A program made the translations under genes and the position numbers. A stretch of 63,617 bases of DNA, counting the filler, from Stramenopiles sp. TOSAG23-6 (taxonomy: Eukaryota), in assembly GCA_900128565.1 (NCBI GenBank). It is 11 parts of 11 records of this genome, joined end to end, with 100 filler letters (N's around TTAATTAATTAA, not from the genome) between each part and the next. Parts side by side here need not be neighbours in the genome. Positions count along the whole stretch, not along the records: positions 23,213 to 28,913 come from LT636850.1; 10 more parts are not named here. The stretch is one strand, 5' to 3'. Under the pieces are notes generated by a model that worked only from the letters and a program-made list of their open reading frames with translations, did not search any database and was not told the DNA's origin. This document shows positions 1,042 through 45,083 of this stretch, in pieces (the first letter of the stretch is position 1; each line of letters starts with the position of its first letter).

Positions 1042-4000
1042 TTAATTTGTTTTGAAATTTTTTTTTGGTTTGGTTGCAATAAGTAGTAAATTTTCTATAG
1101 AAATACATTCATTGACATATCGATGAAATTCTACACGAAATCCATGATTTTCTAAATATTGTCCTCGGCTAAAATCAATGAGCAATTTACAATTTCGTCC
1201 AAATTTTCGTCGTGAAGCTCTATCCAGTTCAAGATAATCTGCTGCATTTGTTAACGGGATTTTTTTTTCAGAATTTTTTGCTTCAGAATTTTTTGCTTCT
1301 GAATTTTTTGCTTCACAATTTTTTGCTTCACAATTTTTTGCTTCACAATTTTTTGTTAATGATAATGTAGCCCAACTACTTGCTTTTGCTACTATAGCTA
1401 CATCGTCTTTACTGAAATTATTATCTATAAAAAATTGTTTATTAATACATTGTTTGAAGTCCAAAAGATGATGACAACATGGAGTATGAAAAATATTTCA
1501 AAAAATCTAAAAAAAATTGTTAGGTACAAAATTTACTATAAAAAAAAACAAATTTGAAATTGAAATGAAAACGTACAGGAGCCAAGAACACAATTAATTT
1601 TATCATTTGATGTTTTTGTATGTTTTGTAATTAAATGTAAAGATAAATCAAAAGCTGGACCACATAAGTGTTTACTCATAAAGACAATATTCTTATTATT
1701 ATTAGTAGTAGTAATATCATTATTATTAGTATTATTATCATTATTAGTAGTAGTATTAGTATTATTAGTAGTAGTAGTTATAATATCATTATTATTATTA
1801 TTAGTAGTAGTATTATTAGTAGTAGTAATAATATTATTATTATTATTATTAGTAGTAGTAGTAGTAGTATTATTATTAGTAGTAGTTGTTGTTGTAATAT
1901 CACTATTATTATTATTAGTAATAATATCATTATTATTATTATTATTAGTAATAATATCATTATTATGATTATTATTATCAATATCATTATTACAGTTAAA
2001 CAAAAACTCTATTTCATTATTGAGTTGATTTTCCTGTATATGTTCTATATCATTGACAATCCTTCGAACATGCCCGCCATATATTTTATATTTATTAGAA
2101 TTTAAATACAATTCTTTGTTTAATTCTTTGTTTTTTGTGTTATTTAACATTTTAAATAGATTAATTCGATTTCTATTCATATCATTTTCAACTCTGGACG
2201 TTGACCGAAATTTCATTCTATCCACTAAAAGATAATTTGGTAATGAAATTATATTTTTTATATTTTTTGTATTTTTTGTATTTTTTGTATTTTTTGTATT
2301 TTTTGTATTGGAATCAATTAGACAAGCTGTATGAGAAGCAAGAAGAGGCATTGTACTATACGTATTCGATTCACTACAAAATGTATCTTCAATATGCATT
2401 ATTGCACCATACGTATCATTTTGTATTGCATTTAATATTGATGAGACTTTTATACTATACCTATATTGTTGAACATATTTAAAAAAAAAAAAGTGAAAAA
2501 AATGTTAGGTACGAATTTTCGTACGAAAAAAAAATTTAAAAAAAAAAAAATCATGATGAAAAAATACATTTCAGAATGGAATTCATTTCCATCAATATTT
2601 CTATATCCTCCAAATATAAATAGTTTATCATTAATCAGAGAGCATGTATGCGAAAATCTACCAACGCATGAAAAATTAGTAGTATTAATTTGATGATTCG
2701 TAGTAGTATCAATTTGATGATTCGTAGTAGTATTAATTTGATGATTAGTAGTAGTATCAATTTGATGATTCGTAGTAGTATTAATTTGATGATTATGATT
2801 AGTAGTATTAATTTCATTATCATCATCATCATTGTCTTGAAGTGATGATATTTTGATTCGTTTCCAAACTACAGAAATCGATTTTTTTTTTGTAGGGTTA
2901 GGGTTTTCACAATCATCTAAACACGAAATACAAAGAATCCAAATAAATTCTTGACCCATCACTTCATCTGCATTACGACCACCATACACTATGATATGTT
3001 TACTATTTGAATTTGAATGATTCGATTCTTTAACAGGTATAAATGTTGCTGAATGACGCCATCGAGGAGGTGGATTATTTCCTATACTATTTTGTAAGAA
3101 AATATTTGAAAAAAAAAAAAAAAAAAATTGTTAGTATGATTTTTTTTTTTTTGATTTTTTTTTGATTTTTTTGATTTTTTTTTTGATTTCAAAAAAACAA
3201 AAAATAAAAAAATTAATAAATTCATTCATGTTGAGATGAGATAACGTACACATTTGGTTGAATCCATTCAAAAGCAAATTCTGTATTTTTCATTTTTGTT
3301 ATTTTTGTTGTACATAAAATATGAACATCATTAAAAGCGCCTTGATGCGATGGAGATCGACGTCCCCCAAATATCACAGTATAGTTGACATTTACATCTT
3401 TAAATGAGCCAATGGACGTTGCAGTATGAAAAATACGTGGTAAAGGTTTCAATCCATTGATATTTTTTTTTTTGGACATTGAAATTGAAATTTCATTTTT
3501 ATTTCCTAGATGATTATTTTTGTTGTTATTATTTTTGTTGTTGATGACATTTTTTAAATTCGATTCATTCCATCTTTTGTCATGTCCATCGTTCGTTGAT
3601 ACTGAAAGTACAATGACGTCATTTAATTTTTTATTTCCTGATATGGAACCTTGACCTCCAAAGATAATTACAGAATCTTCACTTATAGAAGTCATTGAAT
3701 GGCCCCAACGTTGAGTATTCTTAGCCGTTTCATTATTTTCATCATTATTTAATATGGACACAGGTAACCATGATGGACAATCAATGGTTTTGTTTTTGTT
3801 TTTGTTACAATTTACATTTGTAATTGATTTCATATCTATGTTTTTTTTGTCAATGTTTACCTTTTTAATAGAACTCGAGTCTAAATGTGTATCATCATTT
3901 GCAATTGAATCCAAATCAATTGAATTCAAATCAAATTTTCGTCGATTATTCTCTAAAGTTGTGATTCCACTAGTTGTATTATGATTACAATGTTTTACTA

Positions 4001-4881: not shown

Positions 4882-5587
4882 ATGACATACTTGTCCTCCT
4901 CTATACTGTATACATCATTTATTACTGTCGTTGTCATCACTGCAGCAGCATCAAATGTTATAATTACGCCTTCTTCTTCTCCACCTGCTGATTCCGAGTT
5001 GGTTAAAGCAGTCAATCAAAAGAATATTGTTACTCTACGGAATTTGGTTACAAGGAAAGGAAATGTAAATTCTGTTGAGGAATATGGACGCTCAATTTTA
5101 CATCTTGCAATTGAAAACAAATGGACAGAGGGAGTCAAACTCTTGCTAGACAATGGAGCAAATATTGAGCAAGTGACAGACCATAGAGCAGGATTTCGTG
5201 CTGGAGAAACGGCACTTCACTATGCCGCAATCGCTGATAACTCTGAAATTATTGAAATGCTTTTGGGAATGGGTGCTAAAATGAATGTTTTCAACGATCA
5301 TGGGATGACAGCCATTCATCTTGCTTCGGGATTGGGCCGAGTCAATGCAATCAAAACAATGCTAGGTACAAATCGAGACGTCAAAGTTGACGTATCAAGC
5401 AAAAATGTATTTTTTTTTTAAATGAATTTTAATTTTTTTTTTTTTATACGAAAATTTGTACCTAACAAAAAAAAATTTTTTTTTTTAATATTTCTTCACA
5501 AAATAGAAGTATGAAAGTACACCGATTCATCTTGCTGCTGCATCACTCAATGAAGCAATCCCCGTGTTACAATTATTGCTTACTCAT
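4882..5587 (+). CDS. Ankyrin-repeat protein with N-terminal hydrophobic segment, 3'-truncated
   Basis: GRSILHLA, GETALHYAA, GMTAIHLA and STPIHLAA repeats; intron at 5407-5506; a second intron from 5588 runs into the contig end. Confidence 0.9.
5407..5506 (+). mobile_element. Introner-family intron, GT-AG
   Basis: AAT|GTATTT...GTACCTAAC...CACAAAATAG|AAG TAT keeps frame. Confidence 0.88.
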
Positions 5588-9041: not shown

Positions 9042-10252
9042 TTACATTTTGAAAACATTTCCTTCATCGTAACCTACGTCTTTTAGTACACCACTCAATT
9101 TCCCTTGTTTCTTATCTTTTGTCTTGTCTCCACTGATTGCTTTCATCATTGGAGGTGGACCACAAACAAACATCATTAACCCTGGAGTATCTGGTTCAGG
9201 CATGAGTTGTAAAGAAATATTTCAAAAATTTGATTTTTTTTGTGAGATTTAAAAATTATGAAAAAAAAAAAATTCGAAAACAAGAAAAAAAAAGGTAAAT
9301 GATGAAAATATACATATTTCGTCGAACCATATCTTTGTCAATAAAACCATATACAGAGTACAATATGTCAAAGCTANTAAAAAAAATTAGATAAAAACAA
9401 TTTGAAATTCATGATATAAACGTAGTCAATACTCAAAAAAACAAAAGTTTTTGTTTTTTTTTGTTTAGGTACAAAATTTCGTACCAAAAAATAAATAAAT
9501 TTGAAATTCATGATATAAAATACTGTTTCACCAGTCCAATTTCCAGAAGAAGACGCAACGGTATAAACAACCTTAAATCGATCCGGAAATAACTCAGCAA
9601 GTGAATCCAATCGGTCACGCAACAAAATATCATCGACAGTATTATTTCCATATAGAAGGGTAATTTTTGTTCTGTCTTCTGGGTTGTACAAAATTTCGTG
9701 AACTATTTGCAGCATTGGCGTAAGACCGGTTCCACCAGCAACCATACCAATATTTGAGAACTTATTTGCGACATATGGAAATTTACTCCAAGGCCCTTTC
9801 ATCTGAATAGACTGGCCGACATACAGTGAATTGAGATGACGGCCCATTCCACCTGGCTTTCCGTCTTTTCTAGGTGGGTATGCTTTCACAACAAAGTCAA
9901 CGTAACCTTGTTGTGACCGCGTTGAGATTGGAGTATATGGTCTTGATACCATCTGGCCATCAATTTCAGCTTGAATAGAGAGACAACTTGCTACGTCCAT
10001 TCCCAACGTATGCTTCTCTGATGGCAATTTGAAGCGTATTACACTCGTATCTGGGGAAACTTTCTTCGTAGCACTGACACGAAAAGTTTTCCACTCACTT
10101 TTAGATAGTGACGTCAACTCACCTTCATCACACGCAGCAGTTGCAAAAGACGAAGCACTAAACCAACCTATCGAGCCGACGCCCACAGCTCCAACTGATC
10201 CCCACGCAGCACGGGACATAGTGCCATTAATTTTTCTTGCAAATCGGAACAT
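9042..10252 (-). CDS. CYB5R: NADH-cytochrome b5 reductase; exons 10252-9524, 9348-9314, 9201-9042
   Basis: RPYTP, KGP, MVAGGTGLTPMLQ, WTGET|GFIDKDM, VCGPPPMM and terminal VFKM*. Confidence 0.95.
9202..9313 (-). mobile_element. Introner-family intron, GT-AT (degenerate core)
   Basis: AAT AT|GTATAT...CAACTCAT|G CCT GAA keeps frame into VCGPPPM. Confidence 0.82.
9349..9523 (-). mobile_element. Introner-family intron, GT-AT, with internal partial duplication
   Basis: ACA|GTATTT...CTGTATAT|GGT TTT ATT restores WTGET-GFID. Confidence 0.88.
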
Positions 10253-10541: not shown

Positions 10542-11423
10542 ATGAGTGAGTTTGATTTCAAGCAGTTAATAGGAATATGGAAAGCGCAATTCGATATGCC
10601 CATCCAGTATGAATTTCTCTCAGAGAGTAGACTTCGACTCATTATTCAAAGTCTTGAACCCACCACACTTGACTTCAGTCTTGACACCAGTGGTGATCTT
10701 TGGAAACTTGATATTCAACACGCTGGTGGCCCTTTGGGTACTGGTGTAGAATGTTGTATATTTAAGTTTGAATCTGGTGGCGATGAGCTCCATATCGCGT
10801 CACCATTACCCCAGGGAACAAACTCCTTTGGTCCCCGTCCAACAGAATTCGGTGGTGTGACAACTGTGGTTTTTACCCGTCCTGGTAGTGAATCCAAAAT
10901 TCGCGAACGTGCAATGCTTGAGGTTGCACATCACTCTGAAACTGAGAGATTGATTGGTTATTTCACTGAAGCCCTGAAATTATTGGGCGATGCTCAGAAA
11001 CGCATGGAAGCTGTAATGGGAAATGACACTGGACATAATAATCCTATGGAGTTGATGTATTTTTTATTTTTTTTCAAATTCGATTTTTTTTTTTTTTGAA
11101 AATTTTGTACCTAACAAGTTTAAGTTTTTTTTTGAAATATTTTCCAAAATACATTATGATGGAACAAATGCAAATGGCTACAAAGATGCGCAAGATTGAA
11201 ATGAAATACCATTCAGTAATGACTAAAGTTGAAAGTAAATTTAAGAGTGCTAATCCATATGACTGGGAAGATTCCACAGTACGACAGAAATCGAAACAAT
11301 TCCTGGAAAAAGTTCGCGAAATGGAAGAGTTCAGTCAACAGCAAGCCATGACTCTTATGCTCAGACAAAATCAAGCTGCTTCAAAAGGAGGAGGTGCACA
11401 ATCTAATACAATTATTCCTCCAA
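10542..11423 (+). CDS. Hypothetical protein, 3'-truncated; intron 11057-11154
   Basis: Two open frames are joined in phase by a family intron; a second family intron runs into the contig end. Confidence 0.7.
11057..11154 (+). mobile_element. Introner-family intron, probably GT-AT
   Basis: TTG AT|GTATTT...CCAAAATACAT|T ATG. Two AGs within about 10 nt of the branch point are also in frame, so the acceptor is not uniquely fixed. Confidence 0.7.
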
Positions 11424-14730: not shown

Positions 14731-15966
14731 TTACCAAATCGTTGACATTGTATTGTGTATTTCTGTATCTTCAACTGTTTGTTCGGACATATATCGCGTT
14801 GATGTGTTTTTCTTTTTTCTTACTTGTGCATTATTTTTGTGATTTATTTCGATAGCTTTTTGATAGTTCAACTCCCAATCAGTAATTAGCATAGAATATG
14901 CAAATGTATTCAAATTATTATTTGATGGCTTTAATGTTTTACTTTTCAAAGGAGAAACGTTTGACAAATTCGAAATTAAATGCGAATTTGTTTTCATAGA
15001 AACGTCTATTATACTACTACTACTTCTAGTTAACTCAATTGTTTGAGTATCATCTTTAGAATCTGTACTAATTTTACATTTTTTTGCCTTCATTCTCTCA
15101 CTATTACTATATTTACTATCTTCATTAGCATTCTCTATCATTTCTGTTTTTACTATAGAGTTGCTTCCTGGAGTGAAGGATTTACTAGGAAGAGGGTTAG
15201 GGTTAGGGCCACTTTTATATCCCGTCTGTCTTGCCAACAGAGCTATTCTTTTTGCAACGGTTGTATTATAATCCCGATATACTGCCCTAGCATGTCTCTT
15301 ATGTCTAATATCATCACACATCAATGTCTGCATTTCGTGTTGGTAATTTATTTCATCATGTATGTATTGTGAAAAAATATTGTAGAAAAATATTGTTAGG
15401 TACGGAATTTCGTACCAAAAAAAAAACAAATTCATCATGAAAACGTACAAAAAATGGTGGCTAACGGTATAAAATATATTCGTCGGGCGGAGAACTTTCG
15501 AGTATCTATACTGGAATTCACTTATATCTACAATTAAGTCAAAGTCGATAGCAAAAAGGAGTTGTACTTCTAAGGTATTCATTTGCTTGAGAGTTAAACC
15601 CCCAATTCTTGCAAAATCTTTGTTTGTAAAATGAACGTCGTCATTGAACTTTGCTGCAACAAGGACACTAGCAAGAATTGCAGTGTGAACATTTTCAGCT
15701 ATGATTCGATGATTGCAACTACGTTCTAAACGACTCACATAACAACTTGCGAGAATATATGATTCAAAACTACAACACGCATAAGTACAAATTCGAGAAA
15801 TGTATTTTTCCATGTTATAACCAACTATCGGCTTAACGTCTTTTTTTGTTTGGGCGTGGACAACATTATGTTTTCTTTGTGCGGCCATTTTCATCTGATG
15901 CATTCGAAGAGATATGCCACTCTCTATAGAACTCTGATATTCGTTATTAGTTATTCCCATTGGCAT
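14731..15966 (-). CDS. PHO80/cyclin-U(P)-like cyclin; in-frame intron 15362-15448
   Basis: YISRI..Y..CS, AAKFNDDVHFTNKDFARIGGL and MNTLEVQLLFAIDFDL. Confidence 0.88.
   Translation of the reverse strand: MPMGITNNEYQSSIESGISLRMHQMKMAAQRKHNVVHAQTKKDVKPIVGYNMEKYISRICTYACCSFESYILASCYVSRLERSCNHRIIAENVHTAILASVLVAAKFNDDVHFTNKDFARIGGLTLKQMNTLEVQLLFAIDFDLIVDISEFQYRYSKVLRPTNIFYTVSHHFLYVFMMNLFFFWYEIPYLTIFFYNIFSQYIHDEINYQHEMQTLMCDDIRHKRHARAVYRDYNTTVAKRIALLARQTGYKSGPNPNPLPSKSFTPGSNSIVKTEMIENANEDSKYSNSERMKAKKCKISTDSKDDTQTIELTRSSSSIIDVSMKTNSHLISNLSNVSPLKSKTLKPSNNNLNTFAYSMLITDWELNYQKAIEINHKNNAQVRKKKNTSTRYMSEQTVEDTEIHNTMSTIW
15362..15448 (-). mobile_element. Introner-family intron, GT-AT, 87 nt, stop-free
   Basis: TT|GTACGT...GTACCTAAC...CACAATACAT|A; phases match. 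Confidence 0.85.
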
Positions 15967-19072: not shown

Positions 19073-21103
19073 ATGAATCAAGAACAACAAAATAACAGTG
19101 GTAAGAATGATTCGGAAATACAAGTGAAGCAAAAAAAGGTTAAAGAACTAAAGAAATTGTATCTGCAATGGGTTGACACCATGTCTTTGACTTTGTTTTT
19201 CATTGCCATATTCTTCATATGCGGGAATATAATGTCCCATCATAATCCTGACGGTCTTCCGGGCACTGGTGACGAATACCTTGGGAATATTGAATTGTTA
19301 AACAAAACAACAAATAATGCCATTCCAGAGTTAAATCAGAGAGGCCATGATTGCCTTTCCGTTTCACCTTTTCTTGGTAAACAAAATGGAACACTCGAAG
19401 GGGAGTGGGTATGGGTTGATGGGCTTGCGACTACGACAAGACTACTTGCTGGTGATACCCAACCCACTAAAGTAAATGTAACCGGTAAAATTGCAGTTGC
19501 AAATTTTGGGGCTTCTCTTGATCATAAACCTGAATTTGTGTGTTTTCATCATGATTTTTTTAACTAAATAATTGTTTGTACCAAAATTCGTACCTAACGA
19601 ATTTCGAATTCTAAAATTTGTTTTTCACAATACATGGTGGAGGATTTTTTTACTCACACCAAGAAATGATTCAACACTTACATTCCGAAGGGGCTATCGG
19701 CGGCTTAATCTTGGCAAATGATTTTACAATTGAGGGCATAGGCCAGGGCCAGGGTTTTCATACTCCATATGAGTATCTTGAAGTTGATCAACCTGATATC
19801 TTTTTGGTTTGGATTACGGACTTTTACTTATTTCCAGGTGCACCTACCCACAATGCGCCAATTCCAAAATACTTCTATGAAGAATTAGCCAAAAAGAGAG
19901 ACAAACTTTTTGTTGGTGAGAGTAAGATAAGAATAAGTATCTTTGAAGAAGATCAGAAAACAGGAATTGTCGCCAAAAATCCATTTTTATGGTGCCAAGC
20001 CCACATTCTTTTGCCTTTGATGGGCATGTGTGTAATGAAAGTAGGTTTTAATACATTGGACGAAATGAACTTAAAATCGAATGCGATAAATGCTCCACGG
20101 GTCTCAATTTGGCTTGCAATTTTCACCTGTGTACTTCATGTCATCAAATCGCCGATGCTTGGGGTGGGACTTTCGCACAGACACCTAGGAATTTGGGGTA
20201 GCGCTTATGGTTTTGGTTATAATTTCTTTAGTCCTTCCGGTGTAGCATTTTTCAATAATATCTTGGTCGGAATTTCTGTAATGGAACTAGTCAATGCTAC
20301 TAAGAGAATGAGAAAACAAGCTCAAATTTTTAAAAAGTACAGAACTACTCTAATAATATCATTTATATTGACAGTCCCTCCTCCTTTTGTCATAACTTTC
20401 ATTATGATACTTGGATTAATACCAATATATTATTTCGTAGTCTTTAGACTCTTTGAAGATACATTTGGAGGTTTTTTATCAGGTGTATATTTTGTTGTTC
20501 AATTTATGCGACTTCTTCAAGTTATGGGTGAAAAACAGAGGAAAATGAAATTAATGAGACGATCTCGAAATAAAAACAAAAAGAATGATAAACATTCTGC
20601 ACAAATGCTAAAGCTTCAGCATATGACGTATTGGCTTGGCATCAATGCATTTTTTCTACTTATTGCAACTATATTTAATTTAGGTACCTTCCTTCTATTT
20701 ACTGGTGATGGATATACTATGGAAACGTTCTCGCATGTTTTTTGGTATATAAGATATGTATTTCGAAAATCTATCGATGTAATCCTTGCATACTCAAAGA
20801 TTAGATTGTTTGATCAAAGTGGTTTTCATCGGCGTAAGACTATGTACGTTTTCATCATTCATTCCAAAATTTTACTTAAATTTATTTTTTTTCGTACCAA
20901 AAGTTTTTGTACCTAACGATTTTTTTAAACCAAAAAAAAAAAAAAATTCACAATAAATGGATAAAGTTGCCCAAACAATTTCAGGGAAAAGTCGACAGAT
21001 GTCTCGTATGCTCAGACTGTCACAACGTAAAACTGATGAACAAATAGTTAAAGAAACTAAATTATTGCTTCAGAAATCTCAAGCAAGTGAAGAAAAGGCA
21101 TAG
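19073..21103 (+). CDS. Multi-pass membrane protein with extracellular N-terminal region; introns 19538-19635 and 20844-20958 (both GT-AT)
   Basis: Three open exons join in phase (TTT|GTGTGT...TACAT|GGT; AT|GTACGT...CAATAAAT|G); about 7 hydrophobic segments. Confidence 0.75.
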
Positions 21104-23212: not shown

Positions 23213-24640
23213 CAAATATAAAGATTCTAATTGCATAGACCAAAAAAAGAAACAAAATGACAAAAAAGATTTCAATATTTGATAGATTATAACTTTTTCT
23301 TTCTAAACCTTCAATTATATCCCCACCGTTACCAAGACTGTATTTTGGAAAGATATTTCAAAAAAAAAATCCAATTTTTTTTTGTTTTTTTTGTTTTTTT
23401 TGTTAGGTACAAAATTTACTATGAAAAAAAAAAACGAATTTGAATAAAAATTAAAACATACATGATTCGAAATAAAGATGTATTTTGGAAAAATATTGTA
23501 CATGTATACTATTTGATTTAATAATGAAAAGATATGTATATATAATTTTAAAATTAAAAAAAAAAAAAAAATCAATGAAAAAAAACATGTTACCATAGAC
23601 TAAACTATTTTGTTTAAAAAAAAAAAAAAAAAAAAAAAAATCACAATGAAAAAATACATGTGCTCCCATATACAAAACTACTTAGCTGAGGTGTATATTT
23701 CCCTATTATAGCGACATAACAAATAACAACAGGATATAAGACGAATAGAATGAATAGAACAACTTTTGTGAGTTGTTTCGACCCAATTGAAATACTTTGT
23801 AATAATTCACTTATTGAAGAATTTGGGAATAATTTTGTAATTATTAAACAAATCACGTAAAATAAATATAATGTAATGAGATTTTGTTCAATGAGCAAAA
23901 AACTCGAAATATCATCTTGTGCCGTTGTAAAGGCTTCATTTCCAGATGTTGAACCTGCAGGATCAATAACTGTACATATAATGGATAATATATTTCAAAT
24001 TTCAATTTTTTTTTTGTTAGTAAAAAAAAATCAAATTTCAATTTTTTTTTTTTTTTTTTNTTAGTAAAAAAAAATCAAATTTCAATTTTTTTTTTGTTAG
24101 TAAAAAAGTATTTAGTTTGCAATGACAATAGGTAGTAGAGAGGATTAGAAGTACAGAACATATTTGAAAAAAAATTAAATGTTTTTTTTTTTTCGAAAAA
24201 AGTGTTGTATGAAAACCCTAACATGTACAAACAAACAAAAACGTACAAAATTTGTTTTCAAAAGGACACCCATAAATGATCTTACTTAATGACTCTAAAC
24301 TAATATTATTTTTTATCGATTTTCGTACGGCATTTTGTTGCACGCTGAGGTATAAAAATAATACTATACAAATGACATTGACTATATTGATTACATTGTC
24401 TAGTGTTATCAATTGCACAAGTCTCAAACATCGAATTGAAAATGCTTTAGGGTTAGGGTTAGTAAAGACCTTTTTTTTATACCATAGATTTATACTTTGA
24501 TATAATTGAACACATGAAATAAAACCTGCAGATAGTACTATAAAGAGTTGTAAGAAACCATAGCTTGTTTGAGATTCGACATCCATTTATTGTTTGAAGA
24601 TATATTTTGTAAAAAAATATTAGGTACAAAATTTCGTAGT

Positions 24641-24789: not shown

Positions 24790-24929
24790 ATGTCTTTTGG
24801 AAAAATATTTCACAAAAAAAATTTTGAAAATTCGTTAGGTACAAAATTTCGTACGAAAACCAAAAAAAAACCAAAAAAAAAAAAATCGATTTTTTTTTAA
24901 GGCCAAAAAAAAAAAAAAAAAAAACATAC

Positions 24930-25236
24930 ATGAATAAGATTTGCATTTTCTAAATATTGAAACATTTTTGTAATGATTGGTGGTTCACATCCAACTGCCA
25001 TAACTTTTTTTTGTTTCCAATATGTTGATAAGCATGTTCCAATATTGGCTAAAGACGAATTTTTAATTGCTTCAGCACAAAGTTTTGCATTATTTTTTAG
25101 AGATTTCGTGTTTTCAACAATATCTAAATTTCTTGAATACCAACGACGTATTACATTTTGTAACAGATTTCGTGCTAAACGAGATCGACCTGTAAAAACA
25201 AGAACAATATGTTTAGCAATACTCGAATAACTATCA

Positions 25237-25276
<40 letters not shown>

Positions 25277-28200
25277 CATTATTGGTCTGAAAATTTGTAT
25301 GATTTCGTGTGTTTTGTAGTATTGGTTGTGAACATTTTTTTTCGTGTTGAGTTGTAGTACTAGGGTTGGGGTTAGGGTTAGGGTTTGTTTCTTTGTTTTG
25401 TTTATCTACAGAAATAATTTTTGGTTGGATATGTAAAGGTAATGAACCTGGTGATGCTGTTAATTTAAAACCCGGTAACAACCCACCTACTTGGTCTTGC
25501 CAACCTCCTCCACTTGTCAATAATTGTTCTAATTGAAGAACAGCCTACATTTTTTTAAAATATTTCAAAAAAAAAATTAATATTTTTTTTGTTAGGTACA
25601 AAATTGACTACGAAAAAAAAAATTTAAAAAAAAAGTAAATTCAAAAAAAAAAAATTTTTAAAAATTTAAAAAATTACGAATGATAAATAAAACTATTACA
25701 CGTGTGACATACATGAAGCAAACTATTCATATCATACTTAATATCACAAACCTGTCCAATAGCTTGTAAGACACAACCTGCTAAAATAGAACTTGTACCA
25801 AGACCACTACCAACAGGTAATTTAGACCAACACGAAATCTCCAAACCACATCCAATTTTTTCCATTAATTGTGTTGCCAAAATATTTTGATTTTCATTTT
25901 CATTTTCAGTTTGATTAAAATTATGTTTTTTTTCATTTTTGTTTATTACTATTGGAGCATTGGTTTCACTAGAAGTAAGGTTTTCACTAGGGTTAGGGTT
26001 TATATTAATCAAACCACAGCTTATTACTGCTGCTTTAAGTAGTGCTGCTGGGGCTTGAGGTGTACAATAATCATATAACTGATTTATATGTGATATATTG
26101 ACTGTTCCTTTATGAGTATGGAATATAAGAACAGGTTTGTTCAAACGACGAATAGCTGCTCCACTATACTATTAAAAAATATATATAAATAAGATGTATT
26201 GATTTATTACAATGAATTTTCAAAAAAAAAAAAAAAAAAAAAAAAATTCAAATATTTTCAGAAAAAAAAAACAATTTTTAAAACAATTTTTTAAATTTTG
26301 TTTAAATTTTGTTTTGTATGTGTACTACACATACATTGGTCGAATAAACAGGTTTGTGTTTTTTTGTTGGATAAAATGTTCATTATCCCATTTACGCATA
26401 GTAATTGCAACGTTACATGTATTATGAAAAAGTATTTCTTCAAAAAAAAAAATCATATTTTTTTGTTAGGTACAAAATTTACTACGAAAAAAAAAATTAG
26501 AAAAAAAAAATTCAATTTTTAAAAACATACATACTAATCCACCATATTCAAATGTAATTGGAGGTGTATCTGTCCAACCTCCTGCTAAATCTATACGTGC
26601 ACCTGATTTCACAATGATCCAATGTTTGGATTGTTTGGATTGATCAAATTTGGATGGATCAAATATTTTTTTTCCACTTTTTTCGTGTTTTTTTATTTTT
26701 TCAATTTTTTCAATTTTTTCAATTTTTTCAATTTTTTCAATTTTTTCAATTTTTTCGTGTTTTTCTTTAAATTTGTTTGTTATAAAAACATCACAAGTTT
26801 TTACTGCCTGTTGAATTAACATTTGAGCAGCACCTTCATAATGCCTTGATGCACGAATGTTGTGTATAAAAAAATGTAAAAAATGTGTTTTTGTTAGGTA
26901 TAAAAATTTGTATGCAAAAAATGTAAAAATGTAAAAAAAATGTAAATTTTTTTTTTCTACAATTTAAAATGTAAAAAAAAAATTTAAAAAAATTAAAAAA
27001 AAAAAAAAAAACATACATTAATGANTTCGCATTATTCATCCATGAAACACGAATTCTAGACATTTTCTGAACAGATTGACGTCTCATTTGTTGTCCCTGG
27101 CATAAACCTGTGAAAGCTTCAGCCCATTGTGTATTTCGTGCATATAGTGTGTTATAATATTTCAATATAAAAAAACTAAAAAAAATTGAAATATTTAAAA
27201 AAAAAAAAAAAAATTGCAGTGATTCAAAAAATGATATATACTGGGCCTGATCGTAAGCCACCGCAATGATCGCATGTATATACTAGATATATTTACATTT
27301 TCTATTTGTTAGGTACAAGATTTTATTGTAAAAAAAAATCCAAATGTAAAATTAAAATTAAAAATTGAATGAAATTAAAAAAGTTGAAAAAAAAAAAAAA
27401 ACATGAAATTATACAAATTATACAAATAATAAAAATAGTACATAATCATGATACAAAACATACCATAACGACGTGATACATATCCAAATCGAGCAATTGC
27501 AGATAATAAATCAGCAATTTGGGCAAATGCTCTCGCAGAAATATCAACATCCTCATGACACGAAATCTCGTCCAAAATTGGAAAAATACGAGAAAATGTG
27601 TTGTATTGAGCTGCATGTTTATATATATCGGATAATTCAATATGTTTACGATGTAGTAAAACATGTTTCATCTTTGCTATACCAATTGTAGTATAAATTT
27701 GTGTACGGTGTTTGAATATTTTTTTTAAATTTGCATTTTCAAGAATTTCGTATAATGAAGTTTTTTCACAAGATTGCCACGTGTCAAAAGATTTTTGTAT
27801 TTCATCATGACTTAATTTTTGTACTGGACGAGAAAAGTCTAAAAGCCATTGAATTGGTTCAATAGAAATATCTTGATTTTCATGAAATATTGGAAAAAGT
27901 AATGCATGAAGAAGATTTTGTTGATTTTGTTTCTTTTTTAACCCTAACCCTAGTGGCCAAATGTCATTCATGGAACAAAACTGTCCACAATACTCAAAAA
28001 ATGTTGACCATAATTTTCCCATAAATTTTCCATTGTTTTCCATTGAAATTAACCAAGAATCATTTATACCAGTACAAACCAATACTTTACAGTCATTATC
28101 AATTGGTATTTCTTGTATACATGTTTTCGAAGGAATTTCAAATTGAATAGGATGATGTAAAGATAATCCAGAAATGATGCAATGTTGTCCAATTGTTAAA

Positions 28201-28699: not shown

Positions 28700-28856
28700 A
28701 TGAAAAAAAATAGTAAATGCCATTTGTGTTTTGATGAGTTTGAAATGTTTAAAATGTTTGGAAAAAAAAAAAAAACTAATTTCAATTTTGAACATTCAAA
28801 TGGAATAAACAAATATACAAATACACAAATAAACAATTTAAAAAAAAAAAAAAATC

Positions 28857-29066: not shown

Positions 29067-31186
29067 ACCGGAAGCAAATTGAGTTGTTGCATCAACATCT
29101 TTCACGGTGACAGATGTACTGCCTTTGGTAAAAGATCCATCTACTAAAACTCCAGTATTTGTTTTCGTAACACTAACATTCACTTCATCAATGGAATCGA
29201 GTAACTCTAGTGTTGTTTTTACTGTAACGGGTGTTGCATCAAAGGATATATTGGATGTAGTTTGTGAATAGTTACTACCTGTGAATGATATCGTAAATGT
29301 TCCACCCGTAGCATCACAAGTTAATGTTTGCTCTTCATTTTTCTGCCCAATGGTTATTGGATCATCCCCAGATGGACAAGTCTGAAGTTCACATTTATAA
29401 CCATAAAAATCAGAGAATTCACCTTTAAAAGGGCCATGCCACTGTCGCGTTTTGCAACTACAACCTCGTATCATATCAGCATCCCATGAATTTTGACTAT
29501 CTCCATAAGAAACACTATTTAAATTGGCTAAAGAGCGCATACTCAAACATTCACCTGAAGCAGCGGATGCATCTTTGTCAGTAACACCAGCACCAGTACA
29601 TATATGTAAATTATTGTCAGAGAAACATCGAAGTAATTCACATGCATTTCCTTCAAAAGGACCATCACATATACATTTCCCAGTTGCTCTATCACACTCT
29701 CCACGATTAGAACATTCCCATTCTCCATTTGCAGAAAATGTATGTGCTTGGTCAGACGAGGACGGTTCAGCAAACCACGGTTTACCTGTTGGACATTTTT
29801 TATGTTGACAAAACACACCTGAATAACCACCATCACAGACACATGAATATCCTGTAGTAAAATCACAGAATCCATGTCCCCAGCAGGGTAATGTGGGTCG
29901 CATGGAGAAAAGAAAAATATTTTACATTCGAAATTTCGTTAGGTACGAAATGTAGTACAAAAAAAATAAATTTGAAATTCAATTTTGAAAACGTACATCC
30001 TTTGATCATACGGAACTGGGCAATTGTCAGTTGATGCAATTTGACTCTTGTTATAATAACCACAATCACCAACAGTTCCTTCACCACCGGCACCATCCGA
30101 TGATGCAAAACCTGTAAAACATACGCACCCCCCACTGGTACAATATCCACGTATTGTGAAAAATATTTCAAAAAAAATTCGTTAGGTACGAAATTGCGTA
30201 TGAAAACCAAAAAAAAAAATTGAATTAGAAATTCATATAAAACATACACGACCACTACACATTATCCGCTCTCTAGTCCCTGTTGTATCTGGAGTTGTAT
30301 TGATTGTTGCAGAGCCTGTTAGTACTTCAGTATATAGAGGAGGATGAGTTCCAGGATTATGAGTAAATGTTATTTTTGATATAGCACCACCCGATGCGCA
30401 TATAGCGCTACCTCCTGATGTTATACTAACAGTTACTTCTGGAATATTTGCTAAATTTTCCAAGGCTGCTTTTAAATCAGACGCTGTAGCATCACCCGCT
30501 ATTCCTGAAGTTTTTTTACCTCGAAAATTAAGCGTGAAACTTGCACTTGAAGGAACTGCTGAAGTACATTCAATCTGCTGAATCTCGTTTACCTGAGACA
30601 TAGTGAACGGATCATCTCCGAAGGGACAATCTATTTGCAATGAACAGTCGTAGCCTTCTCGACCCTCATCACAAACGCAGCCATAGATCATATCAGCATC
30701 CCAGGGCGTTGAATAGTTGATCCCCAATAAATTCAAATGATTTCCATCAAATTCAGCACCAGCTTCACGCATAGAACGACACTTACCATATCCATTACAG
30801 ACTTTACCGTCCTCGTTGCGTGGACAAGAAAGGCGTTGACACGCTGAACCTTCGAAACCATTTTCACACTTGCACGTTCCAGTTGTTCTATCACAAGTAC
30901 CCATATTACTACACTCTACCCCACTTTGATGAGCGACGTTGGTTTGACTAGCAGAATCTGCCCAGCTTTTACCTGTTGGACAAGCACGTAGAGAACAATC
31001 GCTTCCATGCCAACCGTGTTCACATTCGCATGTTCTGTTCGTGGAACAGTATCCGTGACCACTGCACTTTGTAACGATGCAGTGTGCATAGGCTTTTGGA
31101 AGGGCAGTAGAAAATAAAGAAACTAGAAATATAAAGTCGATGATGCATGCAACAAACACACTTGATTTATGTGTGGATGGCGTCAT
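29067..31186 (-). CDS. Secreted EGF-repeat protein, 3'-truncated; introns 30149-30247 and 29902-29996
   Basis: Signal peptide; CSGHGYC, ECSNMGTCDRTTGTCKC, WDADMIYGCVCD and CPFGDDP modules occur twice. Confidence 0.9.
29902..29996 (-). mobile_element. Introner-family intron, GT-AT
   Basis: AGG AT|GTACGT...CTCCAT|G CGA keeps frame. Confidence 0.82.
30149..30247 (-). mobile_element. Introner-family intron, GT-GT (or GT-AC in the shifted register)
   Basis: CGT|GTATGT...CACAATACGT|GGA TAT TGT restores the EGF motif CSGRGYC. Confidence 0.85.
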
Positions 31187-31665: not shown

Positions 31666-33347
31666 TTACTCTTGTTTTTCAATTTGTTCTATTAATATAT
31701 CATGTCTTAATGATGAATATAACAGATTCCAAACAAGAAGTAGTATAAAAACAATATAAAATGAAGCAGGCAAAATGGCTCTGATATATTCCACATACGA
31801 CTGAACTTCTATTTCTTTTTCTGCAGCCTCATGCTCTAGTTCCTTTACAAGCTCTTCTATTTCTGATGCAAGTAAATCGTCTGAATTTTGTATTTGTTTT
31901 ATCTCATCCTTGTGCTGATTTAAAAGGAAATGAACTCGTGTCACAAGAAAAATAATCGTGAGTGAAGTTAAAAAGCATAAAATCAAAATCCAATGCATCC
32001 ACAATAATGAAGTAACTGGAGGCATTGTACCTGTATTCATACCACCAACAAAAGTCATTGTGGTAAGAAATGCAAATGATGCTGTAGCAATCTGTGCACT
32101 AAAGTGATCATGATGTGATATAAATAGTGAACCTAAAGCCATGGATAAAATAAACCAAAGAGGAACCAACGTATTGCTCACTGGACCCCAGTATTGACGT
32201 GTTACTACAATTGCACCGATCACAAAGCCATCATCTTTCCCTCCATTGAACATGGATGGTTCATTCGTATTGCGTACCGCATATTTACCAGGTGACCATG
32301 CTGTATTTTTTCTTGGTTTTCGTGTTCCTGGTGGATTGTATCCTTTGAGTGAAAGCTCATCTGGTCCATATCTAAATGAGGATAATTTTACTTGAACAAG
32401 TTGTTCATCAAATGGATACCCCCATAAATCAAAATTAACAATAACCTTGACATTCATCCTTTGAACCAACTTGAGATGCCCCTTTTCATGAAAAAGACTT
32501 TCTGTATGAATCTCGGATGGATGAGCTTTGTTACGTGCTTCGATTCCAGGAGTCCATGTACAGTGAAACATTATTTCAAAAATTTGTTTTTTTTGTTAGG
32601 TACATAATTTACTATGAAAAAATAAATTCGGAATTAAAATGATGAAAACGTACATGCAGGCCAACCCTCTTCCGTCATATGAATAAAACCTCTATACTCA
32701 ACATACTCTAAACGCGGATCAAACCATTCTGATTTAATAAGAATATCTAAATCTGCTTGTTGTATTGCCTGATTAATTCCCTGAAATTGCACGAAATCTA
32801 GTCCAACATTAATTACATCTATTTTGCCACTTTTTTTGCTTGGACGATCTTCTGGGTTATAGTGGAGAGGAAAATACATGCCTTCTTCACGAGAAAATGC
32901 CTCGGGAACCATTCCATCAGTCAAGATCTCAGTACCATTTTGATCAGCATTTTTTTGTATAGAAGACTGTTTTTTTTCAGCGGCAACTGCCAAAATATCA
33001 TCAAAATTATATGTTGGTTTTTGTGTTTTGTTTTGAACGTTTCCCTGATTGGTATTCATCACTGTTGCATTCGGTGAAGCAAATCGAAAGTTACCTTTGT
33101 TATTTTCATGTTTTCCTGTATCATGTTGTGACTTTTGTTTGTGCCCAGAATGCTCTGGACGATGTATCCCCGTAGGATTTGTAATCAAGCGCCGTTTATG
33201 TGGTTGTTTCACAAGCAAACTCTCTTCTTCTTCTTTGACCTCTAGAAAGCTCCGTAATTGTTTGGGTTCATCCGCTACAGTAGCTGACGCTGTATAATGT
33301 AAAGAGTATTGTAATAGAAGAATGAATGCGACTTTTGTGTTCAACAT
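31666..33347 (-). CDS. Pentameric ligand-gated ion channel subunit lacking the Cys-loop cysteines; intron 32556-32653
   Basis: Signal peptide, YNPEDRP, EWFDPRL, WTPGI, FDLWGYPFDEQ and four transmembrane helices. Confidence 0.85.
32556..32653 (-). mobile_element. Introner-family intron, GT-AT
   Basis: GCA T|GTACGT...CTGTACAT|GG ACT CCT restores the conserved WxP. Confidence 0.87.
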
Positions 33348-38657: not shown

Positions 38658-40508
38658 ATGGCGAAAAAGAAGGGAGGGAAGGGAAAGGGAAAGGGAAAGA
38701 AGAAGAAGAAGAAGAAGAATAGTTCTGATAAAAATGATGTTGATTCAAAAGAAAAAGGCGATGGTGAAGAATGGAAAACCAAGGGGTTTGTACGTTTTGT
38801 TCCCGAGGAAGAAGACAAACCGAAACCAAAACCTTCTAAACCAATCAGTGAAATGAAGACACACGAACGCATACTCCATCGAAAGACTTATCTTCCTTTG
38901 CCTCGGTTCTCAATTAAATCTAGAGAAACCGCCGCAGTGACAATCAGATGGACTGAGGTTTCTCAGCATAATACTGACAAGATGGGTCAGATAAAGAGTT
39001 TAAAACGTTTAAGAAATTTAGGACTCAGTGAACGATCTGACTTGCAAGACCAACATTATGATGATGCGGCAACAGAGGTAAGAAAGAAAAGTAAGCAAAT
39101 GCACATAGGGATATCCTCTGCTTTGAGCAATGGTTCAAATAATAGGAAAATTCCCCATAGAGAAGATGGATTATTTTTATCTCCTCGGGACTCATATGTA
39201 CTTTTTAATTATGAATTTTTTTTTTTTTTTTTTGGTAGAAAATTTTGTACCTAACGATTTTTTTTTTTTGAATATTTTTTAACAATATATCTTCATAAAT
39301 GTCGTTTAGCACGGGTCGCACCCCGACCTTCGATATTTACAAAAACGTCACCAATTGCGCATAGATCGGTTCTTATGGATAAAAGTTTAAAGTACCAAAA
39401 TGCATTGCTTGGAGTGGATCAAATATCTGCACTATGTGGTGCAATTGAGGAAGTACAAGATATGCAAGTGAGAACTTTATCCTTAGCAAACAACCGCATG
39501 TACGTTTTTATTATTTTTCAAATCCGAATTTGTTTTCGTACGACATTTTGTACCTAACGATTTTTTTTGAAATATTTTTCCAAAATACATCGATCACGTT
39601 GGCTGTCGTCTTCTAAGTACTTCTCTATATCAGCATCATGCATTAATGAATATAGATCTATCTGGGAATCCAATAGGCACGAAAGGCATGGGTTATCTTG
39701 TTCATGTTTTAGAAAGTAATCATCTACATCAGATCAATTTTGCATCATGTATGTTTTCATTGTGAATTTTAAATCTATACTTTTTGTACCAAATTCCCAT
39801 ACCTAACGATTTTCAATGTAACATTTTTCTACAATACATGCTCACTCACTGACGATGCTATTGTAACGCTTTGTCAGGTACTTTTTCGAACTCACTCGGT
39901 GAGACAATTAAATTTGAGTGGTAATACATTCGGGGTACACGCCTGTTCCGCTGTTGCAAAACTAGTTGCCGCATCGACCATTTCGAGTCAATTGAGGTTA
40001 ATGGAATTAAAAATATCCGATAATAAAATTCCTCCGGTGGGTCTTTGTAAGATATTTTTAGCTCTTTCATTAAATGAAACACTACAAGTGTTGGATATTA
40101 GTTTAAATTCTCTCAGTGGTCGTGAATCACGTCACTATAAACATTTACTTCCTGTACTTGATTTGGATGCATACAAGAAGTTTCCAGTGGAAAGAGGATT
40201 TGGTCCAGTTTGGGATAAAATATCATCAGAAGATTCTGAAGTGTCTGAAGGAAAGAAATTAAAGAAAAACGATGGAAAGGATAAAGATAAAAAGAGTTCA
40301 ACAGCAGGAAAAGGGGGGAAAGGCAAAAATGGTGATGATAGTATCAAAGCTTTACGAGCAAAAAATCTAGAAAATAAGCGAATTCATGGACCATGTATGT
40401 TTAATTTTTTTTTTAATTTCAATTTTTTTTCGTACGAAATTTTGTACCTAACATTTTTTTTTTTTGGAATATTTCTCCAAAATACATAGGCGTGGAGGAT
40501 ACAATTTC
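38658..40508 (+). CDS. Leucine-rich-repeat (RI-like) protein, 3'-truncated; family introns 39198-39290, 39500-39590, 39749-39839 (GT-AT) and about 40395-40489
   Basis: Splicing restores LSLANNRI|DHVG and INFASC|SLTD; further LRRs DLSGNPIGTKG and LNLSGNTFG. Confidence 0.85.
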
Positions 40509-42757: not shown

Positions 42758-45083
42758 TTATTCATTCCTACCATTTTTACAAACTGCTACAGGTCCATCA
42801 CCAACATCTACAAGTTCAAAAGTTGGAAATTTCATCATTGTATCATTATGAATATTCCGATGTGCATTCTTATCTTCTTTAATATTTAAGTGGAACCGGG
42901 TATCATTTGCACATTCCTCACCTGAANTAANTTTTTTTTTTTTTTTGTTTAATTGAAAGGTCGTTCAAAGAATTCTCTACTTTTAATTTAAACCCATTTA
43001 TAATATTTTCTATAACTTTAGTACGATAATGTAAAATTACGACTAATGACATCATTGATACAGCAAGTAAAATTTTCCACGTCATTGAAAGTTTATATAA
43101 AAAAACGTCCAAGTTTTCTCCGTGCATATGTTTTATATACAGAATTTTCATACTAAAAAAATGTGGTAAAAAAATCAATTTTTGAAATCAATAATAAAAC
43201 GCAAAGAAAAATCATCAGGCACAATTTGCTTTTGAAAAAACTAAAAAAAATGATGAAAACGTACTGAACCATAGTCGACACCATTAATGATGAAAACAAC
43301 AATTAGTCTAAAGGATGTCGTTACAATGAAGATAAAATCCCATATTGTAAATGACGAAGACGCTGCGGTCAAAATCTGTGCGATTTCAAATATAACAAGA
43401 ATGTAAAATGAATTCAATATGTACTATAAGAGGATAAGAGGATAGAGCAATTGTGTGTAACTAACAAATTTAACATTTGTTTGGTACAAAATTTGGTACA
43501 ACTTACATTTCGTTTTGACATTTGAAAATAGATCAGAGTTGAGTAAAAACACGCAATAGTTTCGAATCCATCGAGAGAAAATGTAGTGTGAAAAAATACC
43601 TAATTTGAAATTTTGTTAAAAAAGAATTGTAGTGTGAAAAAATACCTAATTTGAAATTTTGTTAAAAAAAAAAATAGAAAAAATTGAAATTAGTTTGAAA
43701 TCATCAAAAAGTACATGATTCTCGGCTGAAGGCTTCGTCCCATAAATGATTATATAGTATATATTGGTATAAAAATGTGGATGTGACAGATTTGTCCTTT
43801 GAAATTATTTTGCGGTGCATGAACTGTGACAAAAATAGTTTTTTTAATTCGTTAGGTATGAAATTTTCCAAGTAAAACAAATAAATGTAAAATTTTCACA
43901 ATAAAAAGATTAAAACTTACATACCAGAACCTAATTGTTTCCAAGAACAATTAATAAATTGATGATTCCAAAGTCTTCCAGGTGCTTCACTCGCGGCATC
44001 ATCCATTGTACAGAAATTGATTTTGATGTTACAAAATTTATTTTCGGCAAGAAATGTGAAAAAATATTTTTTTTTGGACAAAAAGTTTTTTATGTACAAA
44101 ATTTTCATTATTAAAAAAAAAAATAGATGAAATATTCCATTTCGAAAACATACAATCACAGCAAAAATGGAAAAATAAAATGTTATTCCAAATACTTTTA
44201 AAACTGACTTTGTAATACTTTCAGAAATATCAAGAAGATCGATAATTTCCATTAGGTTATGGTTAGGATTAGGGTTAGGGTTAGTTCTTCCTGTTTTTCC
44301 AGGGAATTTAACTTTTCCATCGATTGATTTGTTTGTATATTTAACATTTTCTGCGCCTTTTGTAGAGTTTGTATATGCCCGAGAGTGAGCATATATGTAT
44401 TGTGAAAACATATTTTAAATTCGAAATTGTTCAAAAGGTTAACAATTTTGTATGAAAACAAAAATAAAATTTGAAATTCATGATATTTTGGAAAAATATT
44501 TTTTTTAGTGAAAAAATCATTAGGTACAAAATTTCGTACGAAAAAAAAATCGAAATTGAAAAAAGACGACGTACAGACACTGTGACTGTGTATGTAACAT
44601 AAAGTAATTAAGAAAGTATATACCAAACATAATGAGAATATGTAATACCCATAGAACTTCATCTTTTTGAGTAAATCCGTAATAATGTCCAGATTTAATA
44701 TCAACTTTTCCGGATTTTTCATACGCAGACTTATATTTTGTGTGCAATATAATTCGGTATGTCGCTAAAGGAATAAAAATAGTAAATATAGAAATTACCA
44801 GTGACATCACTTTTATCTTGTGAACTTCTAACCGAGTTTTAACAGTAACATAATCTTGATTATTTGACCAAAGGGTTGCAAAGAAAATAGATGCTGTACA
44901 GAGAATATGCAGAGTCATACCAGCTGCAATGGCTTTTTGATATCCCAAAATAAAAAAGACAATGTTGCATAACACGAGGAGAAAACTCTGTAGCAAAATG
45001 ACGCGTTGAGTAAAATTTATCAAAAGTGTTTGTCGTAAGACTATTCTATCGGATGATCCTTTGTTAAATACGACGTGTTTCAT
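42758..45083 (-). CDS. Multi-exon membrane protein of unknown function; exon structure only partly resolved
   Basis: Hydrophobic open frames separated by family introns (44395-44574 is in phase); the other junctions are uncertain. Confidence 0.5.

Follow-up and report, generated by a model that had tools for sequence, protein, structure and literature searches.

Does an intron of the fucokinase gene of Stramenopiles sp. TOSAG23-6 (GenBank assembly GCA_900128565.1) truly end in AT, or is it an AT-AC intron read two bases out of register? The question arises in a window of 63,617 nucleotides (nt), filler included, by which we mean the whole stretch of DNA analyzed here, and the gene lies in the part taken from LT636850.1 (positions 23,213 to 28,913). 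A first-pass annotation had listed nine introns that lack an upstream AT and still end in AT, and had suggested that AT is itself the maintained acceptor. Our results go beyond that claim: one introner-like repeat of ~90-115 nt makes up nearly all introns of the window, and this whole introner family appears to make AT the majority acceptor in this DNA. The reading that we favor, with a probability of about 0.78, is that a U2-like spliceosome would take U or G as the last base of these introner-borne introns. The features at the focal site are the following.

27242..27273, minus strand: exon of 32 nt, (G)DHCGGLRSGP, placed by tblastn and homolog alignment
27142..27241, minus strand: focal intron GT...AT, a diverged repeat copy, placed by sequence, alignment, and the gap-free junction RSGP|ARN
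27017..27141, minus strand: exon, ARNTQWAEAF...SL, placed by tblastn and homolog alignment

The focal intron runs on the minus strand from first base 27241 to last base 27142 (100 nt) and reads CCCA|GTATAT...CTATAT|GCA across its borders, that is, GATCAGGCCCA|GTATATATCATTTTTTG...ATTATAACACACTATAT|GCACGAAAT, with the intron ends also written GTATATATCA...CACACTATAT. It ends in AT and not in the canonical AG, and it has no AT flank because the exon ends in CA. Exact excision of 27241..27142 gives GGLRSGP|ARNTQW, the flanking exons reading GDHCGGLRSGP and ARNTQWAEAF. Homologs (33 matches) were fetched with the large upstream exon as query, and tblastn placed consecutive homolog residues on both exons (e.g., residues 616-622 of P0105 at 27262..27242 and 623-662 at 27141..27016), with both short exon matches being returned by 6 of 12 fucokinase queries. 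Moreover, the spliced model was gap free at the junction against 8/8 fucokinase homologs in a MAFFT alignment, and RSGP was found in all eight as well as in all 9 homolog rows of a second alignment. The next residue is A, S, or G, and the earlier statement that CCA|GT...AT|GCA rebuilds a conserved fucokinase motif therefore holds for the invariant RSGP but not strictly for RSGPA. Three registers, derived by hand, keep Pro-Ala at this junction (AG...TA, GT...AT, and TA...TG), and the donor consensus is present in GT...AT only. When the register is moved two bases upstream (register -2), the intron starts with CA (CA...AT), and SGH replaces the invariant SGP, which is the Pro-to-His change that had been predicted. 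The sole in-phase AG for this donor, at 27097, lies 45 nt into the next exon, and its use would remove 15 aligned residues. No CTAAY is present in the focal intron; TTATAAC stands ~12 nt before its end, and its 3' part (GAAATATTATAACACACTATAT) aligns to the family sequence GAAATATTTTTCACAATACAT. By the alignments, 27241..27142 is a real intron, whose predicted removal starts exactly at its first GT and stops exactly at its last AT.

All nine donors named in the first-pass annotation exist without an upstream AT, and each closes in frame on AT when the phases are taken from the flanking open reading frames (ORFs). Besides the focal intron, these are as follows (introns are referred to by the position of their first base).

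1479..1576, minus strand: TRM13 intron CCT|GTACGT...CTCCAT|G; in frame, 309 + 144 codons
9349..9523, minus strand: cytochrome-b5-reductase intron ACA|GTATTT...GTATAT|GGT, without AT flank; placed by homologs
15362..15448, minus strand: cyclin-gene intron TTT|GTACGT...AATACAT|A; in frame, 192 + 209 codons
17949..18045, plus strand: cupin/JmjC-like gene intron ATA|GTACAT...GTGTAT|G; placed by reading frame only
19538..19635, plus strand: intron TTT|GTGTGT...AATACAT|G; in frame, 202 + 426 codons; no in-phase AG
23976..24246, minus strand: intron TTT|GTACGT...TTATAT|G, ambiguous; in-phase GTACAG| 6 nt downstream
27274..27463, minus strand: fucokinase intron GT...TATACAT, exon end TG; not decisive
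44395..44574, minus strand: intron TCT|GTACGT...AATACAT|A; in frame, 175 + 158 codons; no in-phase AG

The exon ends at 1576, 9523, 15448, 17949, 19538, 24246, 27241, 27463, and 44574 are CT, CA, TT, TA, TT, TT, CA, TG, and CT, respectively. Homologs support 27241 and 9523: at the latter, the junction GET|GFIDKDMV is gap free against 9 homologs, and register -2 reads GEN where the homologs carry T (5/9) or V or R (4/9) and never N (0/9). Pfam continuity supports 1576 to within 1-2 positions, with the TRM13 profile running to ~136-137 on the upstream exon and resuming at 139 on the next, while the reading frame is the one line of support for 15448, 17949, 19538, and 44574; PDB and Pfam searches with the exon upstream of 17949 returned chance-level matches only. 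Of the nine junctions, 17949 and 27463 acquire an in-frame stop in register -2. The 3' end of the 27463 intron aligns with the repeat family, and its junction falls in a 10-residue insertion relative to homologs.

A core-motif scan together with a repeat finder gave 41 motif hits, which resolved into 36 copies on both strands and in all 11 contigs of the window, five hits (6765, 9394, 16661, 34597, and 44590) being set aside because there is no family sequence around them. The genes that host copies include those for fucokinase, b5 reductase, TRM13, the cyclin, EMC1, a Cys-loop channel, and EGF proteins. An alignment of 20 copies (A1) yielded the consensus ATGTATGTTTTCAT..ATGAATTT..T-run..CGTAC.AAATTTTGTACCTAACAA..T-run..AAATATTTTTTCACAATACAT, or in short (AT)GTAYGTTTTCAT ... 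GTACCTAAC ... T-run ... CACAATACAT, so that a copy consists of a yeast-like donor (GTAYGT, then TTTCAT), a branch-like GTACCTAAC, a T-rich tract, and a 3' end of CACAATACA and then T or G. In a frame test, copies were placed by the consensus and excised from GT to A[T/G], and the longest flanking ORFs were then checked for a shared frame. The test comprised 27 rows, including four alternative donors (19540, 26534, 39496, and 56648), core-less rows, and one contig-cut copy (40395), and the evaluable set consisted of the 12 separate introns that contain the core and are flanked on either side by an ORF of 39 codons or more. Ten of these 12 were in frame at the aligned GT...AT boundary, where 1 in 3 is expected (binomial probability of ~5e-4 by our own arithmetic), which is more than chance. 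The copy at 26530 fails the automatic test and is in frame via an 82-nt micro-exon that matches the homolog block GGxVxNxA[IV]; the copy at 23461 is AG ended, out of frame, and outside clear coding sequence.

Boundaries, reading frames, homology across junctions, and family structure were observed directly in the DNA, and frame, profile, and homolog evidence yielded a curated census of 31 introns, with 2 more classed as ambiguous. The 31 end in AT (24; 23 GT-AT and 1 GC-AT), AG (6), or GT (1). Position -2 is A in 30/31, position -1 is T (25) or G (6) in 31/31, and position -3 is C (20), T (9), or A (2), diverged copies such as the focal one included, which fits the suggestion that AT is a maintained acceptor. 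At the donor, the counts are G 31, T 30 (C 1), A 30, Y 31, G 20, and T 31, followed by TTT, i.e., a GTRNGT-like donor compatible with U1 and U6. CTAAY lies 33-49 nt before the 3' end in 25/31 introns, the T-run occupies positions -18 to -11, and the exon after the intron starts with G in 19/31. Approximately 11 junctions are independent: fucokinase contributes six (four AT ended and two AG ended), b5 reductase two, and EMC1 and TRM13 one each, and the paralog-supported 30247 completes the set. Eight AT junctions are gap free or continuous against homologs or Pfam profiles; within fucokinase, the AT-ended 27016, 26530, and 24929 as well as the two AG-ended junctions are gap free in addition to the focal one.

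As the first-pass annotation had pointed out, GT-AT and AT-AC give the same mRNA where AT is duplicated, and this is the case for 16 of the 24 AT-ended introns. GT-AT over AT-AC is nevertheless supported by four independent lines, i.e., the junction residues, the stops, the counts of termini, and one column of A1, in which the G of AG-ended copies (5407 and 2567) stands with the T of AT-ended copies. The 16 shiftable introns would read AT-AC in 11 cases and AT-TC, AT-AA (twice), AT-CC, and AT-AT in the rest, so that AT-AC fits 11 of the AT-ended introns and GT(GC)-AT fits 24/24. Since all 24 fit GT(GC)-AT and the G of AG-ended copies lies in the T column, one register suffices, whereas the alternative needs two or more. 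That alternative, the rival that survives best, holds that the AT-flanked majority is cut as AT-AC and that GT-AT is used only in introns without an AT flank. It obeys the known pairing of A first with C last, AT-AC termini are an established class according to the accessible part of PMC1557818, and the intron at 30247 reads GT...AC in the shifted register. However, five of the 16 shiftable introns would end in TC, AA, CC, or AT, eight AT-ended introns cannot be shifted without a protein change or a stop, the AG-ended copies have their junction in the GT-AT column, and the conserved GTAYGT would move from +1 to +6 to +3 to +8. We therefore regard mixed registers as unlikely.

U12-type introns have the branch consensus TCCTTAAC, the donor RTATCCTT, and a branch site ~10-20 nt from the 3' end. 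ACCTAAC loosely resembles this branch consensus, and it could be argued that the introns are minor-spliceosome introns of the GT-AT subtype, expanded as in Physarum. However, the donor here is GTAYGTTTT and not RTATCCTT, with G at +5 in 20/31 and T at +6 in 31/31, and ACCTAAC/CTAAY lies 33-49 nt from the 3' end (25/31), farther than in U12-type introns. An Rfam scan of the window found no small nuclear RNA or other family and is uninformative for the U12 question. On the side of this rival, GT-AT makes up 17% of the non-canonical U12-type introns of Physarum in the accessible text of 10.1101/2020.10.12.336362, and a GT-AT subtype of minor introns is listed for animals in that of 10.1101/2022.09.24.509304. 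We consider a U12 origin very improbable.

Slightly less probable still is that these are ordinary GT-AG introns and that the AT ends reflect mis-set boundaries, missed micro-exons, or wrong frames. The span 26534..26172 at first resembled one GT-AG intron, a candidate that was rejected when homolog alignment split it by a micro-exon into two introns, the first ending in AT and the second in AG, and an in-phase AG lies within 9 nt for 27463, 24246, and 56110; for 27463, this is an in-phase ATCTAG| 9 nt upstream, well spaced from the branch motif. Of the nine donors on which the first-pass annotation relied, seven have no plausible canonical alternative, while 27463 and 24246 do have an in-phase AG. 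Against GT-AG boundaries, the in-phase AG of the focal donor removes aligned residues, as described above, and there is none within 60 nt for 9523, 19538, and 44574. The sole in-phase AG at 17949 runs into a stop, and the nearest open ones at 1576 and 15448 delete 18-19 codons (at 1576, the sole open in-phase AG is 54 nt downstream and would delete 18 codons; at 15448, the only in-phase AG would delete 57 nt). In addition to the eight AT junctions supported by homologs or Pfam profiles, the public cytochrome-b5-reductase model (P0001; 9044-10270, minus strand), which uses GT-AG sites only, is visibly wrong, with ~20 junk residues VFYIMNFKFIYFLIWFDEIW where the homologs and the GT-AT model carry GFIDKDMVRRNMPEPDTPG. 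A broad canonical-rescue scan (any GT/GC within 45 nt) was not relied on, as it took wrong phases beside short exons (9523, 9313, 24246, 27016, 27241, and 27463).

Least probable of all is that the elements are not spliced but are gene-breaking transposons, assembly or amplification artifacts, or DNA segments excised in the TA-bounded manner of ciliates, for although the 2-nt flanking repeat with the short inverted repeat ATGTA...TACAT is transposon-like and contig ends are located inside copies, donor, branch-like, and T-tract signals are sense oriented in all 31 curated introns, many unrelated conserved genes stay in frame across copies, and eight AT-ended introns lack the flanking repeat needed for precise DNA excision.

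Returning to splicing at GT...AT, we infer from these sequence features that the introns are removed by the spliceosome, presumably the U2-type one, which would pair as usual with the donor GTAYGT and the branch site UACCUAAC. The last base of the 3' site would then be U in approximately three quarters of introns or G in approximately one fifth, and the site is probably set by the T-tract and the conserved CACAATACA context and not by scanning for YAG/YAU. A site that follows the T-tract and CACAATACA would point to a U2AF-like reading of the tract and a second step that tolerates U in the last position. The first YAT/YAG after the branch site was tried as a rule and rejected, because upstream TAT and TAG are skipped.

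Several points weigh against this reading. The intron's first G is normally matched by a G in the last position, as known from yeast genetics and spliceosome structures. Most copies pass over a TAT ~15 nt before the end, and four AT-ended introns (1576, 9523, 27463, and 56652) pass over an internal TAG, a specificity that is not explained by sequence. Two of the nine cases, 27463 and 24246, are not decisive. The last two bases are not fully fixed, since the intron at 30247 ends in ACGT and A at -2 is thus not absolute, and the census is not blind because the boundary search took only A[T/G] ends. Rather than selection, the youth of the copies could account for part of the 3'-end conservation. 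Moreover, the analyzed sequence amounts to ~62 kb of one assembly, a 23-mer from exon 2 of the b5-reductase gene had 0 matches in metagenome contigs, and no transcript-derived fragments were found for the b5-reductase exon among shorter proteins at E <= 1e-10 or for the LRR-gene exon 39842-40393 at E <= 1e-5.

Regarding the origin of the family, its ends resemble those of a small DNA transposon that duplicates an AT target: the inverted repeat ATGTAY...RTACAT, read from the consensus, spans 6 nt including the flank, and the exon ends in AT in 20/31 introns, compared with a background dinucleotide frequency of 0.095 in long ORFs. The 2-nt flank is identical in 17/31, and the third base matches in 10/31, which is approximately chance. 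We doubt that such a transposon is the whole story, because the invariant Pro-Ala focal site (CCA|GCA) has no AT to duplicate, because AG-ended copies share the exon-side AT (4/6), and because the match stops before the third base. The terminal AT may belong to the element itself, with a preference for landing sites that follow an AT. An inner hairpin, GGTAC...GTACC, is not claimed as a conserved structure, its 5' arm changing without compensation when read by eye.

The remaining features of the fucokinase gene are listed below.

26857..27016, minus strand: intron TAAT|GTATGT...CAACAT|T, AT flanked, also readable as AT-AC; SLIRASRHYEGAAQ gap free against homologs
26417..26530, minus strand: intron GTAT|GTATGT...AATACAT|G, AT flanked; GGLV|CNVAI fits homolog GGxVxNxA[IV]
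26335..26416, minus strand: micro-exon of 82 nt, CNVAITMRKW...FIRP; placed by homolog alignment
26164..26334, minus strand: intron GT...GTATAG, AG ended; RP|IGA as in homologs
25545..25712, minus strand: repeat-copy intron GT...ATGTAG, AG ended; LLH|AVLQLEQ gap free
24790..24929, minus strand: repeat-copy intron TCAT|GTATGT...AGACAT|G; in frame, IH|VA aligns to homolog IHGA

The last fucokinase exon (24670-24789, minus strand) reads SPSSGR where the GHMP motif GAGGGG stands in 7/8 homologs, the eighth being truncated before the motif; judged by this residue pattern, the protein may be a divergent or inactive kinase. Downstream, a repeat copy at 24587-24681 (minus strand) fills the gap from the fucokinase stop codon to the start codon (ATG) of the ORF that follows, which encodes a membrane protein beginning MDVESQ, and splicing of this copy at AT|GTATCT...AATAAAT|G would fuse both ORFs in frame with the Met codon rebuilt. 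Read by eye, the arrangement could represent an intergenic copy, a fusion gene, or alternative splicing.

The other introns of the window are as follows.

294..433, plus strand: repeat-like intron, AG ended (CACAACAG|)
575..735, plus strand: intron ACAT|GTATGT...ATAAAT|G; in frame, 53 + 47 codons
2461..2567, minus strand: repeat-copy intron, AG ended (CAATATAG|); in A1
3087..3249, minus strand: repeat-like intron, AG ended (CAAAATAG|)
5407..5506, plus strand: repeat-copy intron, AG ended (CAAAATAG|); in A1
9202..9313, minus strand: cytochrome-b5-reductase intron ATAT|GTATAT...ACTCAT|G; RRNM|PEPD gap free
11057..11154, plus strand: repeat-copy intron GT...AT, AT flanked; in frame, 214 + 111 codons
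18209..18308, plus strand: repeat-copy intron GC...AT with GC donor TAT|GCACAT; in frame, 61 + 66 codons; in A1
20844..20958, plus strand: repeat-copy intron CTAT|GTACGT...ATAAAT|G; in frame
29902..29996, minus strand: repeat-copy intron GGAT|GTACGT...CTCCAT|G; chain in frame into an EGF ORF
30149..30247, minus strand: repeat-copy intron CGT|GTATGT...AATACGT|GG; exon chain in frame
32556..32653, minus strand: Cys-loop channel repeat-copy intron GCAT|GTACGT...GTACAT|GG; in frame, 284 + 295 codons
35194..35285, plus strand: EMC1 repeat-copy intron GGAT|GTACAT...AATACAT|A; EMC1_C profile continuous (50-157, then 161-214)
39198..39290, plus strand: repeat-copy intron GT...AT; in frame, 184 + 88 codons
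39500..39590, plus strand: repeat-copy intron GT...AT, near the family consensus; in frame
39749..39839, plus strand: repeat-copy intron GT...AT; in frame, 59 + 215 codons
43581..43714, minus strand: intron GT...AT; in frame, 60 + 54 codons
56110..56213, plus strand: repeat-copy intron, ambiguous, with two in-phase ends (AT at 56213, AG at 56222)
56652..56755, plus strand: repeat-copy intron GT...AT; in frame, 153 + 95 codons

The junction CSGR|GYC at 30247 matches the paralogous CSGHGYC repeat, and because its exon ends in CGT, this intron can be read as GT...GT or GT...AC. Two copies, 30149-30247 and one at ~51490 (both minus strand), end in ...AATACGT in place of ...AATACAT. At the start of the ORF downstream of the 32653 intron, no in-phase AT or AG is present other than the end of this intron.

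The DNA is AT-rich (26-40% G+C), with long ORFs dense across the window and broken by short, highly AT-rich stretches. Ten spacers, each of 44 N + 12 bases + 44 N, occur ~5.8 kb apart at a slowly shrinking spacing, the 12-base core being TTAATTAATTAA in 5/5 spacers looked at.

5704-5803, spacer
11507-11606, spacer
17310-17409, spacer
23113-23212, spacer
28914-29013, spacer
34713-34812, spacer
40509-40608, spacer
46293-46392, spacer
52071-52170, spacer
57847-57946, spacer

This pattern indicates that the window consists of ~11 contigs (5.7-5.8 kb) of descending size placed end to end; contig ends cut through copies of the intron repeat, so that genes do not run on across spacers. Gene content by Pfam comprises TRM13, TYW3-Kelch, EGF-rich proteins, cytochrome-b5 reductase, a PHO80-like cyclin, CLP1, a GHMP kinase, a Cys-loop channel, SART-1, EMC1, and a NUDT21-like protein. 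Two spliceosome proteins that look ordinary at the level of sequence search, the C-terminal part of Snu114/EFTUD2 (PDB search, E of 1e-140 to 3jcr_B) and SART-1 (Pfam), are encoded at 33741-34697 and 35586-38399 (both minus strand). Telomere-like (CCCTAA)n runs encoding NPNPNP lie within coding exons of the cyclin and fucokinase genes (15196-15207, 25371-25382, and 28401-28412, minus strand), exact matches of CCTAACCCTAAC numbering 3 against 0.01 expected, and shorter telomere-like runs are found in other exons. Otherwise conserved genes also contain long low-complexity inserts that keep the frame (Asn/Asp runs and EKI repeats, at 1638-2050, 25230-25290, and 26690-26760). In public data, the only RNA runs with words in common with the window were two seawater metatranscriptomes from one study (0.07 of sampled words each), and one database protein, with a EukProt label beginning GSMAST32, was 100% identical to the b5-reductase exon; the label probably denotes an assembly from an uncultured marine stramenopile. 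A 22-mer from the repeat core had 0 matches in metagenome contigs, viral contigs, and prokaryote genome contigs.

The 3' AG is among the most constant signals of eukaryotic gene expression, and few lineages are known to abandon it wholesale. With moderate confidence, we extend the favored reading to a free-living marine stramenopile lineage with a relaxed major spliceosome, in which U would end approximately three quarters of introns and one CAT-ended introner would have spread this change genome-wide. If true, non-AG acceptors have become the genomic norm through a mobile element, with donor and branch signals still canonical, and published protein sets of the lineage are systematically mis-spliced. 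A single-base change from AG to AU beside a textbook donor and branch site would offer a clean natural experiment on the second step and on U2AF-type factors. This also bears on how introners spread, as the non-AG acceptor seems to come with the element, with no AG borrowed from the target site. The group comprises abundant ocean grazers; because gene finders restricted to GT-AG give wrong proteins, their proteomes, phylogenomic matrices, and metatranscriptome mappings are likely corrupted at such introns.

We found no published report of an introner-borne, AT-ended majority acceptor. The phrase "GT-AT introns" was not found in the literature that could be searched (~1.7 million PubMed Central articles lay outside it), and no literature joining introners with marine stramenopile single-cell genomes was found. 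By term search of the accessible text of the lineage papers PMC5778133 (with text supplements), 10.64898/2026.04.17.719054, PMC12614181, and PMC8163842, "splice" and "canonical" do not appear in the splicing sense, and "intron" is absent from two of the four and limited in the other two to passages on methods or genome architecture. In the accessible parts of 10.1101/2020.10.12.336362 and 10.1101/2022.09.24.509304, GT-AT is described solely as a rare subtype of U12-type introns. Such introns share the terminal dinucleotides of those described here but differ in donor and branch spacing, and they are a rare minority in known genomes, compared with approximately three quarters of introns here.

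Among known systems, the introners of Micromonas and Aureococcus (surveyed in 10.1101/2022.06.06.494994 and PMC12130899) are alike in being near-identical short elements that form whole introns in unrelated genes and in having their own splice signals, short terminal inverted repeats, a flanking direct repeat, and an aquatic host. Described introners use canonical splice motifs, as is said of the Aureococcus elements in the available text of PMC7789003, whereas here the 3' end is CAT in most copies. The 2025 survey, in the part available (PMC12130899), counted only AG and AC as familiar 3' sites and dropped mainly non-canonical families unless they were confirmed by transcripts. The introner elements of Amoebophrya, as presented in the same accessible text of PMC7789003, are alike in their inverted repeats between the ends, non-GT-AG termini, and marine protist host, and in a direct repeat that overlaps the boundaries, so that the exact cut is ambiguous. 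They have no favored terminal dinucleotide, with inverted repeats of 8-20 nt and direct repeats of 3-5 nt, whereas the family described here has a strict GTAYGT, an end of A[T/G], a 2-nt repeat, and end complementarity of at most 6 nt. In the tunicate Fritillaria borealis (10.1101/2025.08.15.670264, accessible part), the major spliceosome likewise handles a majority of introns without a 3' AG. Both ends are non-canonical there, with 95% of introns outside GT/AG, and the abstract makes no link to a single repeat family, whereas here the 5' end is canonical and only the last base is altered. Divergent U2AF subunits are implicated in the reading of the new 3' signals of Fritillaria in that text, and by analogy a U2AF-type change is the kind that we would expect here.

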